A stretch of DNA of 64,000 nucleotides from an uncultured Clostridium sp. (GCA_946404215.1 CAMJCT010000004.1:22847-86846); one strand, 5' to 3'; shown: positions 30,363 through 35,548, counted from the first letter of the stretch. Translations and numbers: made by a program. Notes: generated by a model not told the origin, from the letters alone.

Positions 30363-30608
30363 TTAAATATTATAGTATTTATCATCTGTAAAACCAGCAA
30401 GCCAAGATGGAGAGACTTTAAAATATTTAGCTAATCTACTAATTTCACTTGGTCCAATTTTACAAATTTGTTTATGAGCATATTTACAAATAGTAGCTTT
30501 AGATTTAAAACCAAGTTCTTCAGCCAAATATTCATAACTATGCCCAGAATTCTTAATAAGTTCTTCTAATCTAGTTTTAAAAAGTTCATCCAAAATAACC
30601 CCTCCCAC
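30363..30608 (-). CDS. XRE-family HTH transcriptional regulator (small)
   Basis: ...SGHSYEYLAEELGFKSKATICKYAHKQ...SEISRLAKYFKVSPSWLAGF is a Cro/C1-type HTH. GTG at 30608. TTG at 30593, preceded by GGGAGGGG, is the more likely start. Confidence 0.6.
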   Translation of the reverse strand: MGGVILDELFKTRLEELIKNSGHSYEYLAEELGFKSKATICKYAHKQICKIGPSEISRLAKYFKVSPSWLAGFTDDKYYNI

Positions 30609-30760
30609 GGAATAATATAATAGAATTATAACATTTTAAAAAAGATTTGTAAACAAAGTAACACTGATAATATGAAAAAATAGCAAAAAATGAGATAATC
30701 TATTGACAAAAACACAAAAAAATTATATCATGTTTCCAAACAGTGAACAAAGGAGATAAA

Positions 30761-31000
30761 ATGAACGCAAAAATAGTAGGAAAAAGAATAAAAGAATTAA
30801 TGGAAAAAAAATGTATTACGCTGGAGCAACTATCTAAGCAAATGAATATAGTTGAAGAGGAGTTAAATAAAAAGTTAGAAGGAAAAGAGGAGTTCTATAT
30901 TGGAGAAATGGCTCAAATAAAGGAAATATTTCAATTACAACTAAAAGAGTTTGACGAGCTTTTCTTTAAAGAAGACAAAGAAGAAGATAATAATAATTAA
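30761..31000 (+). CDS. small HTH-like regulator, divergent from the XRE gene
   Basis: MNAKIVGKRIKELMEKKCITLEQLSKQMNI... RBS AAGGAG 5 nt upstream. Acidic C-terminal tail. Confidence 0.45.
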   Translation: MNAKIVGKRIKELMEKKCITLEQLSKQMNIVEEELNKKLEGKEEFYIGEMAQIKEIFQLQLKEFDELFFKEDKEEDNNN

Positions 31001-31119
31001 AAAATATATATTTTTAATTAAAAATACATTCTAAAAAAAAAATAATTGAATAAATATATTATAAATGTTAATCTAATTAATAGTATTAAAAAGAATTTAG
31101 AAAGGAGGTCAAAAGTAAA

Positions 31120-32533: not shown

Positions 32534-33546
32534 AAATAAAAACAGATAATACTAGGGTTTCAAATGGAGTAATTATAAATAACAGGTTTTATCCCAAAAG
32601 AAACTTACAATCTGGAACCTTAAGAATAATTCTTACAACAAAGTGTAATTATCAATGTAGATATTGTTTTGCAGAAGGCGAAAAAGAAAAAGATGGAAAG
32701 ATAACAGACTTAGAGAGCTTAAAAAAAATAATAAAAGTTGGAAAGGAATTTGGGATTAACAAGATAAAACTAACAGGGGGAGAGCCTCTATTATATCCAC
32801 ATATGGATGAGCTACTAGAATATATTAGAAAAATAGAAATACCATATGTTGATTTAACAACAAATATTTCTTTACTAACTGAAAAAAACATAAAGCTTTT
32901 AAATAAATACAGTGTAAATGCAATTACACTTAGCTTAAATACATTAGAAGAAGATAAATTTATATATTTAAGTAACTACCCCCATTTTGAAATAGTAAAA
33001 CAAAATTTTAGAAATACTGTTAAGCTATTTAAAGGTAAAATAAGAGTTAATTGTGTAGTATTTGACGAAAAGTATGATGAAGAAGATTATAGAGAAATTA
33101 TTTCAATGTGCAAGAGAAACAACCTAGGGTTAAGGCTCATTGAACCTTCAAAAGTTGAAGGACTTAAAATAACATATACAAAAGAAAAATTCCACGAATT
33201 AATAGAGAAACTAAGATTAGATTCAGACAATGTTGTAAACTCAGACTGCAGTTCAGTGGAATATTTATTTTTTGGAAAGTGGTATATAACGGTTATGCAT
33301 AGTTTATGTGATAATAATCACTGCAATACATGCACAAAATACATGTATATACGTGTAACTTCAGATTTAAAACTTAAGCCATGTCTATCAAGAGTAGACA
33401 CAGAAGTACCAATAAATACAGAAAGTGAAGAAGAAATAGAACATGCCTTTATAAAAGCAATTAGCTATATGGGAGTAGGTATAAATTCAAAAAATTGTGA
33501 AAATAAAGATAAAGAAAGGGTTGGTATGCAATATGAAAATGTCTAA
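32530..33546 (+). CDS. radical SAM enzyme with C-terminal Cys-rich (SPASM/twitch-like) region
   Basis: LRIILTTKCNYQCRYCFAEG...KLTGGEPLL..., then a C-terminal CDNNHCNTCTKYMY...KPC. 4-nt overlap with the upstream rSAM gene (translational coupling). Confidence 0.65.
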   Translation: MKIKTDNTRVSNGVIINNRFYPKRNLQSGTLRIILTTKCNYQCRYCFAEGEKEKDGKITDLESLKKIIKVGKEFGINKIKLTGGEPLLYPHMDELLEYIRKIEIPYVDLTTNISLLTEKNIKLLNKYSVNAITLSLNTLEEDKFIYLSNYPHFEIVKQNFRNTVKLFKGKIRVNCVVFDEKYDEEDYREIISMCKRNNLGLRLIEPSKVEGLKITYTKEKFHELIEKLRLDSDNVVNSDCSSVEYLFFGKWYITVMHSLCDNNHCNTCTKYMYIRVTSDLKLKPCLSRVDTEVPINTESEEEIEHAFIKAISYMGVGINSKNCENKDKERVGMQYENV

Positions 33547-34169
33547 AAAAGAAGGATTACAAATGCTAAATATGTTGAAAGTTCCATCTGTAGAATTAAT
33601 AGATCCAAATTTATTAGATGACAATAGCGGTATATTAAAAGAAGGGTTAAGTGTAAGAATCTCACCCAAAGAAAATATGCAGAATAATGTATATTTACCA
33701 TCAATACATAATCAAACAAACTTATCTGAAATTAGAGAATTTATGGGAAAGTACCAAAGAGACTTTAATATAATAGTGCATAAAACAGTAAAGCCTGAAA
33801 TAATAGGTTCGGTGTCAAAATATCAGTTATCACCAGAAGATGAAAAACTAGTAATAGAGCTATTCAAAGACTTTAAAGATAGAGCAGAAGGAAGAATAAA
33901 AAACAGGGCAATTTTACCAGTTGCAGGTGGTAGAATTATGGTTAGCCGGATTACAAATGCAAGAAAAAGATGAAGGAGATTTTAAAGTATTTTCAAAAGT
34001 ATTACAAGGAATACGAAAGATGCCATTTCAAACATACGATGCAGAATTTATAACAGAAAATGGACAAGTATGCTTTACAGATTTAACTATACAAAGTCCA
34101 GCTGATATGGAACTAATGAAAACAATTAATGAAGAAGATAAAAAAAGTAAGGAATGGAGCCAAAAATGA
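33533..34169 (+). CDS. hypothetical protein (single gene; +1 shift at the in-frame CGG at 33947-33949; start uncertain, 33497-33539)
   Basis: ORFs 33497-33973 and 33921-34169 overlap. Skipping C33947 in ...gtt agc CGG Att... gives ...IMVSGLQMQEKDEGDFKVFSK..., joining them. No family recognised. Confidence 0.4.
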
Positions 34170-35548
34170 AAATATCAAATTTAGGAATAAAAACATCAAG
34201 AATAAAAGAGTTAGATGAAAATTACCCTGCTCAGGATATGTTATTGCAAAGTGGTCAGCTTTGCCAATATGCTAGCGGAATATATGGCTATAATAATATA
34301 CCATTAAAGGTAAAACAACAAATAGAGCAAATTATAAGAGAAGAACTTGAAAAAGCAGATTGTGTTGAAGTAGAATTACCTATATTACAACCAAGTGGCA
34401 TATGGGAAAAGTCAGGAAGATGGGAAAAATATTCGGAAAACGGAACTATGATGACAGTTGAAACAGAAAAAGGAAAATTTGGTTTAGCACCAACTGCAGA
34501 AGAAGCAATAGTAGAGTTTGCAAGAGAGCAAATAAATTCTCATAAAAAATTACCAGTTACGTATTTTCAAATTGGAGAAAAATATAGAAATGAGTTACGA
34601 AATAGAGGCTGTTTACTAAGAGGAAAATCATTTTTAATGATGGATGCATATAGTTTTAATAAAGATAAAGAAGATTTACAGGAAACATATAAAAATATAA
34701 AGCAAGCATATCTAAAAATTTTTGAGAGATTAGGGCTTGAGGTAATTCCTGTAGCTGCACAAAGCGGAGATATAGGAGGAGATAAATCAGAGGAGTTTAT
34801 GGTATTGGCTGATATTGGAGAGGATACTATTTTATTAGATGAAGAAAAGAAAAAAGGTTTTAATGTAGAAGTTCAAGAGAGACCAGGATATGAAGAATAT
34901 TTGAAAAAAGAATGTGGAATAGAAAACCCAGAAAATTTACAGAGAAAAAAAGCTATAGAATTGGGACACATATTTCAATTAGATACAAAATATTCAAAGG
35001 CTATGGATGCAAACTATGTAGATTCAGGAAATAAGCAAATTCCATATTTTATGGGTTGTTATGGAATTGGCGTAAGTAGAACACTTGCAACGGTTTATGA
35101 AAAAAGTTTAGTAAAAGACAAAAAGGGAAAACAGTCAATATCTTTACCAATTGGAATTGCACCGTATTTGTTACATATTGTGGCAAGTGGAGAAGAAAGA
35201 GAAAAAAATGCAGAATGCTTATATGAGGTATTGAAAGACCATGGAATAAATACTATATATGATGATAGAAAAAAGGAAACTATGGGAGCTAAAATTGGAG
35301 ATTGGAAAGTTTTAGGAACGCCTTATGTTGGAATTCTAGGAAATAAAATAAATAAAGACGAAATAGAAGTTCAAAATTTGGCAACCGGTGAAAATATGAC
35401 ATTAAAAATAGTAGATTTAATGAAAGCATTAGAAGAATTGGAAAAAGATAGAAAAAACAATCCAAATGCTAGGTTAAGTGATTATACTGTGCAGAAGCAA
35501 GAAAAAAACGAAATAATACAATTAGATAAAGATGCATGTGTACGTTAG
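34154..35548 (+). CDS. class IIa aminoacyl-tRNA synthetase, prolyl-tRNA synthetase-like, without the INS editing domain
   Basis: Motif 1 region (...ELPILQPSGIWEKSGRWEKY...), motif 2 (YRNELRNRGCLLRGKSFLMMDAYSF), motif 3 (GCYGIGVSRT), C-terminal anticodon-binding domain. Collinear with bacterial ProRS except for the missing ~180-aa insertion. Overlaps the upstream ORF by 16 nt. Confidence 0.6.
   Translation: MEPKMKISNLGIKTSRIKELDENYPAQDMLLQSGQLCQYASGIYGYNNIPLKVKQQIEQIIREELEKADCVEVELPILQPSGIWEKSGRWEKYSENGTMMTVETEKGKFGLAPTAEEAIVEFAREQINSHKKLPVTYFQIGEKYRNELRNRGCLLRGKSFLMMDAYSFNKDKEDLQETYKNIKQAYLKIFERLGLEVIPVAAQSGDIGGDKSEEFMVLADIGEDTILLDEEKKKGFNVEVQERPGYEEYLKKECGIENPENLQRKKAIELGHIFQLDTKYSKAMDANYVDSGNKQIPYFMGCYGIGVSRTLATVYEKSLVKDKKGKQSISLPIGIAPYLLHIVASGEEREKNAECLYEVLKDHGINTIYDDRKKETMGAKIGDWKVLGTPYVGILGNKINKDEIEVQNLATGENMTLKIVDLMKALEELEKDRKNNPNARLSDYTVQKQEKNEIIQLDKDACVR

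Follow-up and report, generated by a model that had tools for sequence, protein, structure and literature searches.

A conserved gene cassette of uncultured gut Firmicutes with a pair of radical-SAM enzymes and a recurrent prolyl-tRNA synthetase neighbour

Between clpC (25333-27789) and dxs (35893-37743), a 64,000-nucleotide stretch of DNA from an uncultured Clostridium sp. (hereafter the window) carries a compact block in which two radical-SAM (rSAM) enzymes, a Nudix hydrolase and a prolyl-tRNA synthetase (ProRS) accompany a pair of small regulators, raising the question of what such a combination might make. A sequence-only reading had regarded this block as an accessory operon reminiscent either of nucleotide-modifying anti-phage modules or of tRNA-dependent or RiPP-like tailoring. 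Its placement between clpC and dxs was borne out, all ORFs were found where that reading had located them, and nearly all gene calls were correct, the exception being a "hypothetical protein" discussed below. The block contains the following features:

30270-30304, both strands: bidirectional terminator-like hairpin (15-pair stem, T-runs on both strands), downstream of HTH(-); left boundary of the block
30363-30608, minus: HTH(-), XRE/HTH_3 regulator of 76-81 aa, divergent from the operon (Pfam HTH_3 24.6 bits, cut-off 23)
30625-30731, both strands: intergenic region of the HTH pair with divergent promoter-like sites (consensus matches only)
30743-31000, plus: HTH(+), small HTH_26-like protein opening the plus-strand unit (HTH_26 25.7 bits, cut-off 22)
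31120-31548, plus: MutT-like Nudix hydrolase, 142 aa (PF00293 NUDIX 61.7 bits, cut-off 21.1)
31631-32533, plus: rSAM1, radical-SAM enzyme of 300 aa (CNLNCKYC motif, fold shaped like that of viperin, degenerate twitch/SPASM tail lacking the cluster cysteines)
32530-33546, plus: rSAM2, MoaA-like radical-SAM enzyme of 338 aa, 4-nt overlap with rSAM1, C-terminal CX2CX16C
33533-33973, plus: N-terminal piece (146 aa) of an orphan, split ATP-grasp enzyme
33957-34169, plus: C-terminal piece (70 aa) of the same enzyme in a different frame, with conserved DAEF and FTDLT motifs
34166-35548, plus: bacterial-type ProRS of 460 aa, lacking the INS editing domain (tRNA-synt_2b 105 bits, HGTP_anticodon 51 bits, TIGR00409 386 bits, cut-off 306.7)
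35532-35564, plus: intrinsic-terminator-like hairpin and T-run (ATGCATG.GTAC / GTAC CATGCAT) spanning the ProRS stop codon

The view that these genes form a single regulated unit was upheld by the divergent promoter-like sites, the gene overlaps and the hairpin at the ProRS stop, the last having been read directly from the sequence and not reported by the hairpin scan. Both promoter-like sites, which are consensus matches only, agree with 11/12 consensus positions: TTGACA-17-TATCAT on the plus strand (30703-30731) and TTTACA-17-TATAAT with a TG on the minus strand (30653-30625). They lie between the two genes of the divergent HTH pair, which is CI/Cro-like and was rightly called, both members passing their Pfam cut-offs. 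HTH(-) is kept in all clpC-dxs syntenic relatives (59-80% identity), and the true start of HTH(+) is likely the ATG at 30761, judging by an AAGGAG 6 nt upstream. On the dxs side, the element previously described as a MITE corresponds to a perfect 25-nt inverted repeat with arms at 35598-35622 and 35759-35783. The pilin-like gene said to flank the block stands as a weak call (N_methyl 17.9 bits, cut-off 21.2).

The same gene order was found again in dozens of independent assemblies, in line with the suggestion that neighbourhood conservation be checked, and is thus not a chance arrangement. The cassette is a small family without a name, represented in 38 dereplicated lineages, all of them MAGs and mostly from gut Clostridia and Bacilli, with one alphaproteobacterium. 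Every locus of sufficient length to cover rSAM1 and rSAM2 has the two of them, and this pair forms the invariant core. Where both flanks could be seen (26 lineages), the ATP-grasp gene occurs in 24, the Nudix gene in at least 18 and an adjacent ProRS in 15; the alphaproteobacterial cassette has neither Nudix, ATP-grasp nor HTH pair. All cassette genes are under purifying selection, and the cassette is lost or decaying in some lineages, the ProRS and rSAM genes having been lost or decayed independently. The term "accessory" suits the ProRS but not the whole cassette, which occupies the clpC-dxs site throughout one lineage. Family copies were absent from viral contigs, neither an exporter nor a "Trojan-horse" moiety for uptake is conserved alongside the cassette, and no tRNA gene was found in the window, those of the relatives being only unrelated tRNA-Thr and tRNA-Leu genes. 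In one locus (L052) the neighbours are TrpRS and metK. No paper on the cassette was found in the literature and none of the curated families describes it; it is a real, conserved and regulated unit of uncultured gut Firmicutes, hitherto undescribed.

What, then, do the two rSAM enzymes act upon? For rSAM2, whose size, C-terminal Cys cluster and overlap with rSAM1 were all as first noted, the known enzyme that it resembles is MoaA, with which it shares the two [4Fe-4S] sites, an N-terminal CX3CX2C (CNYQCRYC) and a C-terminal three-cysteine cluster (CNTC...C), the latter spaced CX2CX16C instead of the CX2CX13C of MoaA. Alignment to the S. aureus enzyme showed that the CX2C...C and the R..(S/T)SD motif are kept, as are a number of basic residues that we take to line the GTP site of MoaA. 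Equivalents of R17, T102, R192 and R268 are retained, and the C-terminal cysteines align with the C261/C264/C278 region. The gene is well constrained (dN/dS 0.10-0.15).

Assignment of rSAM2 as a genuine MoaA was considered and rejected. In Moco synthesis, MoaA has a C-terminal Gly-Gly tail and its partner genes are moaC, moaB, moaD and moaE. rSAM2 ends in ...GMQYENV, without such a tail, scores about half the cut-offs of the MoaA models (TIGR02668 152.8 bits, cut-off 325; NF001199 150.1, cut-off 231; TIGR02666 131.4, cut-off 284), and none of moaB, moaC, moaD and moaE was seen among the annotated cassette neighbours in the neighbourhoods examined. With rSAM2 at 153 bits against 325 for MoaA, and rSAM1 below every curated family cut-off, neither protein is a housekeeping enzyme, as had been anticipated.

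The MoaA-like features of rSAM2 could nevertheless serve a pathway to a GTP-derived, pterin- or deazapurine-like cofactor for the cell's own use, in which a MoaA-type cyclisation would be followed by a NudB-like pyrophosphatase step and the attachment of an amino-acid tail by the ATP-grasp enzyme. ATP-grasp enzymes attach amino acids to cofactors such as F420 and those of the methanopterin type, the Nudix protein weakly matches dihydroneopterin triphosphate diphosphatase, and the strong constraint and vertical inheritance of the cassette, like the retained auxiliary cluster and the basic residues to which we ascribe GTP binding, would fit. We nonetheless judge this quite improbable, as no conserved MoaC-, QueD-, FolE-type or user-enzyme partner lies nearby, the cassette is lost or decaying in some lineages, and the ProRS is left unexplained.

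rSAM1 is, as reported, a 300-aa enzyme with CNLNCKYC and no SPASM cysteines. Its fold, a partial TIM barrel with a C-terminal extension and no auxiliary cluster, is of the viperin type, and an anti-phage module could be envisaged in which rSAM1 would make a chain terminator resembling 3'-deoxy-3',4'-didehydro-NTPs while the other genes tune nucleotide pools. The sequence argues otherwise: over its full length rSAM1 reaches 73.4 bits against the viperin model NF038283 (viperin_w_prok; cut-off 180), fewer than the 124 and 120 bits that it obtains with the core models of AhbD and NirJ2, and the PADLOC pVip models also match the MoaA-like rSAM2 (82 bits), so that they are unspecific. Moreover, unlike viperin/pVip, rSAM1 invariably comes with a MoaA-like partner rSAM and lies outside a defence-island context; the stable locus, narrow taxonomic range and want of copies in viral contigs point the same way, and rSAM2, ATP-grasp and ProRS would be left unexplained. 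The anti-phage assignment is unsupported and very unlikely.

By sequence profile, rSAM1 groups instead with peptide-modifying SPASM/twitch enzymes, its core being closest to SkfB, CteB and anSME and its C-terminal part aligning with the SPASM/twitch region. Together with a genuine RiPP-type cassette tied to the same ProRS family elsewhere (see below), this would suit the tailoring role first considered, with the rSAMs maturing a small precursor peptide by a RiPP or tRNA-dependent route. However, the SPASM match reaches just 16.9 bits and rSAM1 has no auxiliary-cluster cysteines, the window's cassette has no RRE domain and no plausible small ORF (the missing precursor had already been remarked upon), and both the Nudix gene and an NTP site resembling that of MoaA indicate nucleotides. 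Peptide tailoring is thus hardly credible for this locus.

The Nudix call was sound, the protein combining a Pfam score above the cut-off with an intact GX5EX7REUXEEXGU box (GHVEQNEEIRKSAIREAKEEIGI). Its best NCBIfam models are MutT-type, every score lying under the respective cut-off and no equivalog subfamily being reached, and its dN/dS is 0.15-0.28. The "hypothetical protein", in turn, is not one gene of no family: it is a minimal enzyme with an ATP-grasp fold, split into two ORFs that in relatives together form one protein of about 212 aa. The split results from a 1-nt insertion at AG(C/T)CGG common only to the window, L016 and L014. The ATG of the C-terminal piece is conserved, and its dN/dS is 0.23-0.25 versus L016 and L021, and 0.94 versus L014. 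This ATP-grasp family has only 38 representatives in 1.84 billion proteins.

The synthetase call was likewise confirmed by the TIGR00409 score and by the tRNA-synt_2b and HGTP_anticodon domains. Class II motifs 2 and 3 are present (YRNE...RGKSF and GCYGIGVSR), and a short linker of about 20 aa replaces the INS region of 5znj; there is no tRNA_edit match, and the PRK09194 score is 414.5 bits for a cut-off of 558, against 717 and 683 for the canonical ProRS of L177 and L018. The start is likely at 34166, within an ATGA overlap, rather than at 34154. A contig of L177 has an INS-less ProRS adjoining a canonical INS+ ProRS, with homologues of the cassette's HTH pair on either side (45% identity for HTH(-), 36% for the HTH_26 gene), and close relatives show at least four independent, clean ProRS losses without remnants. 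These losses, the coexistence in L177 and a truncated second copy in L028 indirectly suggest that the window's ProRS, the only one within its 64 kb, is probably a spare copy. The gene is constrained (dN/dS 0.08). It lies beside the rSAM pair in the 15 lineages counted above, downstream, upstream or convergent and drawn from at least five ProRS clades, an association far above chance, yet the gene is dispensable.

One way to explain this association is genome organisation: the INS-less ProRS, together with the HTH pair, would be a separate "second ProRS" module, either mobile or regulated and perhaps a backup tolerant of stress or drugs, beside which unrelated rSAM cassettes settle. In L177 the HTH-pair homologues and INS-less ProRS indeed flank a quite different cassette, composed of a PapB-like rSAM and a 32-aa peptide, and in L058-60 a peptide cassette adjoins an INS-less ProRS, behind a terminator. 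The independent loss or decay of ProRS and rSAM genes would agree, as would L001, which is identical to the window over 4 kb and yet has a ProRS dS of 0.08. In the alphaproteobacterial island next to tRNA-Thr, however, the rSAM pair sits by an unrelated, canonical INS+ ProRS, without the HTH pair; the adjacent ProRS genes are of several clades and orientations, and one particular gene of roughly 2000 cannot adjoin so often by chance. We regard mere organisation as unlikely.

Alternatively, the rSAM pair, with or without ATP-grasp and Nudix, could act on tRNA-Pro, ProRS, EF-P or another proline-decoding part, with the ProRS either as their functional partner or as the principal synthetase. There are precedents for rSAM enzymes and aaRS paralogues that modify tRNA and EF-P (EpmA/EpmB, GluQRS), the ProRS neighbourhood is repeatedly conserved, purifying selection on rSAM1 is very strong (tighter than on dxs), the place among housekeeping genes is stable, and TrpRS and metK are next door in L052. 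Set against this are the narrow and patchy taxonomic range, the dedicated XRE regulators, and the fact that rSAM1 is a pseudogene in L016, L037, L040 and L150, where the ProRS is intact. The vicinity is free of tRNA genes, T-boxes and efp, and no curated tRNA-modification family was matched; we consider a role in translation distinctly unlikely. A pyrrolysine-like code-expansion cassette (rSAM, ATP-grasp, class II aaRS and tRNA) was also considered and rejected, there being no dedicated tRNA gene.

Closer parallels come from nucleoside antimetabolites. The albomycin (abm) cluster of Streptomyces, which makes a thionucleoside SerRS inhibitor, joins two rSAM enzymes to an extra aaRS: AbmM and AbmJ remodel the nucleoside sugar, and AbmK, a second SerRS, is an aminoacyl-adenylate donor and confers self-resistance (PMC9032320). 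AbmM (8wm2) is among the PDB matches of both rSAM1 and rSAM2. The Photorhabdus 4'-thiothymidine genes thmABC are a similarly minimal set, in which an rSAM and a phosphorylating enzyme are combined with a nucleoside triphosphatase shielding the producer (PMC12691670); the logic matches that of rSAM, ATP-grasp and Nudix, but thmABC has a nucleoside kinase in place of ATP-grasp, another NTPase, one rSAM and no aaRS. Phosmidosine is a natural mimic of Pro-AMP, and duplicate aaRS copies have been proposed to protect against natural inhibitors (PMC11229370). BtProRS1/2 of Bacillus thuringiensis, MupM, AgnB2 and SerRS2 exemplify duplicate synthetases that share an amino acid but differ in architecture, as do the INS+ and INS-less ProRS of L177; the cassette ProRS is of bacterial type and has lost INS, not archaeal or eukaryote-like, and its resistance role is putative.

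The nucleotide-modifying role, one of the two first considered, is the best one, as it accords with the presence of a Nudix gene, with the MoaA-like residues of an NTP site and with the viperin-like shape of rSAM1. We tentatively propose, as the leading possibility, that the cassette encodes a compact pathway to a modified nucleotide or aminoacyl-nucleoside, in which the ProRS, by analogy with albomycin, would be a prolyl donor and/or an immunity determinant. With the HTH pair as on-switch, rSAM1 and rSAM2 would modify a nucleoside triphosphate at its ribose or base in consecutive radical reactions; the MoaA-like site of rSAM2 suggests that the substrate is a purine NTP. The ATP-grasp enzyme may then phosphorylate the intermediate or ligate to it a carboxylate, possibly proline, and the Nudix hydrolase would trim the triphosphate, either releasing the product or clearing a toxic NTP analogue from the producer's pool. 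The putative spare ProRS could provide prolyl-adenylate or Pro-tRNA, and/or sustain translation if the product mimics Pro-AMP. All these chemical steps are deduced by analogy.

Several observations weigh against this proposal. The profile of rSAM1 is nearest to peptide-modifying SPASM/twitch enzymes, and the alphaproteobacterial version would have to work without Nudix and ATP-grasp. Where the ProRS has been lost, the rSAM genes are still intact and under constraint, a poor fit with strict self-immunity. An antibiotic cluster would not usually keep a stable place between housekeeping genes of small-genome commensals, and a conserved exporter or uptake moiety is absent.

A broader and more doubtful view takes in the peptide cassettes as well. 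At least two unrelated rSAM routes, each coupled to a ProRS paralogue that lacks editing and to an HTH switch common to both, would yield Pro-AMP-like or proline-mimicking inhibitors, with the spare ProRS as immunity and/or prolyl donor. The first would be the nucleotide route of the window, and the second the PapB-like peptide route of L177 and L058, whose precursor ends in ...KRTCPD. If this were true, members of the gut microbiome would be contending over ProRS as an antibiotic target, one attacked by previously unknown inhibitors.

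All the ORFs that the sequence-only reading had listed for the block flanked by clpC and dxs were found again, and its domain calls stand on Pfam/NCBIfam-type profile scores. The observation was thus confirmed with one correction, concerning the gene called a hypothetical protein, and the cautious interpretation attached to it is supported in part. The features of the cassette are the following.

Features of the cassette in the window
30363-30608, minus strand: small HTH_3 gene (profile match)
30743-31000, plus strand: HTH_26-like gene, divergent from the HTH_3 gene (profile match)
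31120-31548, plus strand: Nudix gene, Nudix box intact
31631-32533, plus strand: rSAM1, a radical-SAM enzyme of 300 aa with the CNLNCKYC motif and no SPASM cysteines
32530-33546, plus strand: rSAM2, a radical-SAM enzyme of 338 aa overlapping rSAM1 by 4 nt, with CX2CX16C at its end
33533-33973 and 33957-34169: two ORFs in different frames, previously read as one hypothetical protein
34166 (probable start) to 35548, plus strand: class II synthetase (ProRS core plus HGTP anticodon domain)

The HTH_26-like gene probably starts at the ATG at 30761, which is preceded by a strong ribosome-binding site. The proposal that the block is a single transcription unit is backed by putative promoter sites, the best two in the region, which lie between the HTH genes and point apart, by a bidirectional hairpin that closes the left side of the block, and by an 11-bp hairpin followed by a T-run that spans the ProRS stop codon. 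The element described as a MITE measures ~186 bp, lies between ProRS and dxs and is delimited by perfect 25-nt terminal inverted repeats (35598-35622 / 35759-35783); it occurs once in the window, and L001, a related contig from an independent metagenome, terminates inside it. In the window and in nine related loci, no leader RNA (T-box, riboswitch or other) was detected for ProRS or the operon, the only SAM riboswitches in the loci scanned being those of neighbouring metK genes.

Exact and related copies of the cassette were found in metagenomes and MAGs only. A scan of one genome per species revealed 21 species carrying it: one alphaproteobacterial MAG, and otherwise MAGs of Clostridia, Bacilli and "uncultured Clostridium sp." recovered from the guts of humans, mice, rabbits and other hosts. 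Further copies came from a JGI metagenome scan, with none on viral contigs. Neighbourhood conservation, which had been suggested as a check, was evident in the 38 lineages left after dereplication; wherever a locus extends far enough to cover both rSAM genes, the pair is present. Both flanks are visible in 26 lineages, where the ATP-grasp gene (the split ORFs of the window) was found in 24, the Nudix gene in at least 18, and a ProRS gene within 1.5 kb of the rSAM pair in 15. The linked ProRS genes belong to at least five clades and do not keep one position.

Placement of ProRS relative to the rSAM pair
Directly downstream: the window and many relatives
Directly upstream: lineages L032 and L146
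Upstream, on the opposite strand: lineage L040
Convergent, as a truncated gene, a further copy lying 7 kb away: lineage L028

In the alphaproteobacterium the unit consists of rSAM1-rSAM2-ProRS, here with a canonical, INS-containing ProRS (INS being the editing domain; PRK09194 683 bits, cut-off 558); it adjoins a tRNA-Thr gene, within a stretch that is variable in its downstream part and has an integrase there in one assembly. Because one particular gene out of ~2000 cannot recur so often beside the same pair by chance, the ProRS-rSAM link is functional or regulatory. No additional conserved partner (exporter, kinase or PLP enzyme) was common to the non-syntenic contexts, and the uncharacterised 284-aa and 286-aa proteins of lineages L018 and L056, considered as a common partner, are not related to each other.

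The cassette ProRS is of the bacterial type (TIGR00409 386 bits, cut-off 306.7), with the INS domain replaced by a short linker of ~20 aa, and falls within a large family of INS-less ProRS of 437-470 aa from low-GC gut MAGs. Prolyl-tRNA synthetase is a validated drug target. The unusual motif 2 of the enzyme (YRNE..RG.LLRGK.F.MMDAYSF) was considered as an operon-specific change of the active site, but INS-less ProRS unlinked to the cassette carry the same motif, which is therefore no evidence for drug resistance.

The copy number of this enzyme could be approached indirectly. No second ProRS is present in the 64-kb window. In the clpC-dxs syntenic group, ProRS-plus and ProRS-minus species are interleaved in a Dxs/rSAM1/rSAM2 tree, which requires at least four independent losses (lineages L014, L021 and L023 and the L024-26 clade); no ProRS remnants remain in the gaps of the ProRS-minus loci. 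Such clean losses indicate a spare copy, since an essential single-copy gene could not be lost in this way. In addition, all database members of the window's ProRS clade that could be placed lie on cassette contigs, so the ProRS-minus species show no relocated orthologue. Finally, in locus L177 (GCA_054296465.1) an INS-less ProRS with 61% identity to that of the window lies 1.5 kb from a canonical ProRS of 569 aa (PRK09194 717 bits). From the repeated loss, the lack of relocated copies and the L177 pair, the ProRS of the window is quite probably a second copy. As a separate observation, L001 matches the window exactly over ~4 kb, from the HTH genes to the C-terminal ATP-grasp piece, with one nonsynonymous difference, and its ProRS (4098-5480) diverges from that of the window (34166-35548) with dS 0.08 and 2.4% of residues differing, which suggests recombination, with its breakpoint where ProRS begins, or else chimerism of the assembly.

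The L177 locus (JAZSXL010000057.1, 6206-11881) holds a different rSAM cassette beside its INS-less ProRS.

Gene order in the L177 cassette
Gene 1: HTH_3, minus strand
Gene 2: canonical ProRS
Gene 3: PapB-like SPASM rSAM (174 bits vs cut-off 340)
Gene 4: 32-aa ORF (MDIVDVKVDAGLLVKNIERFSDEISVKRTCPD), strong ribosome-binding site ahead of it and terminator behind it
Gene 5: INS-less ProRS
Gene 6: HTH_26

Its HTH genes are homologous to the pair of the window (45% identity for HTH_3 and 36% for HTH_26). In L058-60, an abundant gut lineage (L058 cassette region 5974-9314), the L177-type rSAM is present in fusion with a membrane domain, and an L177-type peptide (...SVKRTCPD) and a terminator precede the INS-less ProRS; in both cassettes the peptide is of ~32 aa and ends in ...KRTCPD. 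The membrane-fused rSAM is unrelated to both rSAM1 and rSAM2, and shared flanking genes proved uninformative as a gauge of kinship between the L058 and window genomes. This layout shows that the INS-less ProRS and the HTH pair recur beside two unrelated rSAM cassettes, as a second-ProRS module with unrelated neighbours would do, a less likely rival explanation that the repeated ProRS linkage of the rSAM1-rSAM2 pair speaks against. A peptide ORF next to a SPASM enzyme likewise brings to mind RiPP tailoring, which the sequence-only reading had raised for the window and which is an unlikely rival there; rSAM1 is devoid of SPASM cysteines.

Neither rSAM enzyme turned out to be a housekeeping protein in HMM searches, rSAM1 remaining below all curated cut-offs and rSAM2, MoaA-like over its full length, reaching about half of the required score (153 vs 325 bits). 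The rSAM1 family is tight and unnamed, with 53-94% identity within it and generic SPASM proteins coming next at 36% or less, while the AhbD and NirJ2 models cover its core only. Viperin-type defence, also proposed from gene architecture, would make rSAM1 an anti-phage enzyme. PADLOC pVip models do match it (104 bits), yet are not discriminating, since the MoaA-like rSAM2 is matched as well (82 bits); the curated prokaryotic viperin model gives rSAM1 73 bits against a threshold of 180, and no phage-borne copies were found in IMG/VR, where the best match was a generic rSAM with 31% identity. In the family profile, the C-terminal part of rSAM1 aligns with CteB and anSME over their SPASM/twitch segment, whose cysteines it lacks. 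We read rSAM1 as a twitch-derived enzyme that lost its auxiliary cluster, viperin-like in shape and outside the viperin family. No other gene of the region is as constrained (dN/dS 0.03-0.06 for rSAM1 vs 0.08-0.10 for dxs). Apparent insertions of ~370 nt, or an intein, in rSAM1 were an artefact of merging its matches with cross-matches in rSAM2.

In rSAM2 the R..(S/T)SD motif and all three cysteines of the auxiliary cluster are retained, together with equivalents of the GTP-site residues R17, T102, R192 and R268 of MoaA. It lacks the C-terminal Gly-Gly, and no moa genes occur among the neighbours of the cassette. The synthesis of a cofactor-like metabolite is a less likely rival that would draw on MoaA-like chemistry.

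Behind the supposed hypothetical protein stands an orphan ATP-grasp enzyme whose gene is split. Homologues form only 57 clusters, mostly single proteins of 200-217 aa, with which the two ORFs of the window align end to end, and when 1.84 billion representative proteins were searched with a profile, only 38 relatives emerged, of ~220 aa at most; judged by these searches, the family is restricted to the cassette. The split is caused by a 1-nt insertion at AG(C/T)CGG, common to the window and the sister lineages L014 and L016 and missing from the next relative, L021; its presence in at least four independent assemblies rules out a sequencing error. Both pieces are under purifying selection, with dN/dS of 0.16-0.26 (N-terminal) and 0.23-0.25 (C-terminal), the exception being the C-terminal piece against L014 (0.94, a noisy value from 61 codons). 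The enzyme probably functions in two-chain form or by way of a frameshift that escaped recognition. At the split site (33940-33960), a rare CGG codon is kept in 3/3 split lineages, along with an in-frame ATG for the downstream piece, which may be produced by re-initiation or +1 frameshifting. Programmed +1 frameshifting was considered in view of the common rare-CGG site, but no obvious slippery sequence is present.

The surroundings of the cassette vary. In the window, 28183-30031 contains a small gene, pilin-like by a weak N-terminal methylation motif, and after it a gene for a 532-aa protein without family match, with GC locally raised (0.33-0.39 vs ~0.28); homologues, only partial and diverged, exist in L021, L016 and L142, this being the variable part of the clpC-dxs gap. 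The dxs gene, intact in the window (616 aa), appears as two ORFs (~437 + 213 aa) or frame-broken in several independent assemblies of related species (L006 12223-14152, L010, L029, L142 11153-12990). Mobile-element genes adjoin the cassette in some lineages (L016, L017 upstream, L143, L020), namely a phage integrase and an AAA_14/DUF4143 ATPase in place of the HTH pair in L016, a phage baseplate Gp10-like gene in L143 (4900-6132), and an integrase and a resolvase in the alphaproteobacterial island L020 (9688-11481). In Bacilli-type MAGs the cassette lies between a TrpRS-like gene and metK (L052 6693-13030), the latter with its own SAM riboswitch (66 bits, L037 4004-4087); whether by coincidence or not, a SAM synthetase here adjoins two enzymes that consume SAM. 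Lineage L028 (5782-7460, 10665-14763) presents a response regulator and a histidine kinase ahead of the cassette and, after it, the truncated ProRS (271 aa, opposite strand) and a Bce-like ABC ATPase with FtsX-type permease. The rSAM1 gene is frameshifted in L016 (5611-6511), L037 (185-1074) and L150 (649-1538) and has an internal deletion of ~32 codons in L040 (1420-2204), with rSAM2, ATP-grasp and ProRS apparently intact beside it; decay of the cassette is under way in some lineages.

The analysis established the enzyme types, their conservation, the ProRS linkage and the dispensability of ProRS. Membership tests place the cassette outside viperins, MoaA, SPASM RiPP systems and Pyl-like cassettes, and confirm its Nudix enzyme, its ATP-grasp fold and its ProRS as genuine, the last without an editing domain. 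A translation-linked modification system is another, less likely rival; no dedicated tRNA gene, as a Pyl-like arrangement would have, was found with the cassette. The closest precedents are the albomycin cluster, where two rSAM enzymes remodel a nucleoside and the SerRS AbmK provides both seryl-adenylate and resistance (PMC9032320), and thmABC, which combines an rSAM enzyme, a kinase and a protective NTPase (PMC12691670); phosmidosine, in turn, is a naturally made Pro-AMP mimic (PMC11229370). By analogy, the cassette could encode a modified-nucleotide or aminoacyl-nucleoside pathway, a reading put forward tentatively and given somewhat less than an even chance. The Nudix gene, the MoaA-like site of rSAM2 and the viperin-like shape of rSAM1 would point to a nucleotide substrate undergoing two radical steps, with the ATP-grasp enzyme performing a phosphorylation or ligation, the Nudix enzyme trimming triphosphates or sanitising the pool, and ProRS acting as prolyl donor and/or immunity. 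Against this explanation stand the lack of a conserved exporter, the intact rSAM genes of the ProRS-loss lineages and the stable chromosomal site in small-genome commensals. A full-text literature search returned no description of the cassette, on which a paper on tRNA-deacylase mining is also silent.

We class the cassette, tentatively, as a small nucleoside-type biosynthetic cassette with an attached aminoacyl-tRNA synthetase, three of its enzyme subfamilies being uncharacterised. The ProRS-rSAM association is robust, and unexplained, in common gut bacteria, and the function of the cassette is inferred. If the nucleotide pathway is real, common uncultured gut Clostridia and Bacilli would hold a compact, unexplored route to a modified nucleotide or aminoacyl-nucleoside. 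The enzymology would be new, the builders being an orphan ATP-grasp enzyme and radical-SAM enzymes of two new subfamilies; the route would hint at a ligand or inhibitor of prolyl-tRNA synthetase that occurs in nature; and genome mining would gain a rule, that of an editing-less ProRS beside rSAM genes. Should the antimetabolite idea prove wrong, the recurrence of ProRS beside the rSAM pair in different phyla still makes a clean, testable functional association.
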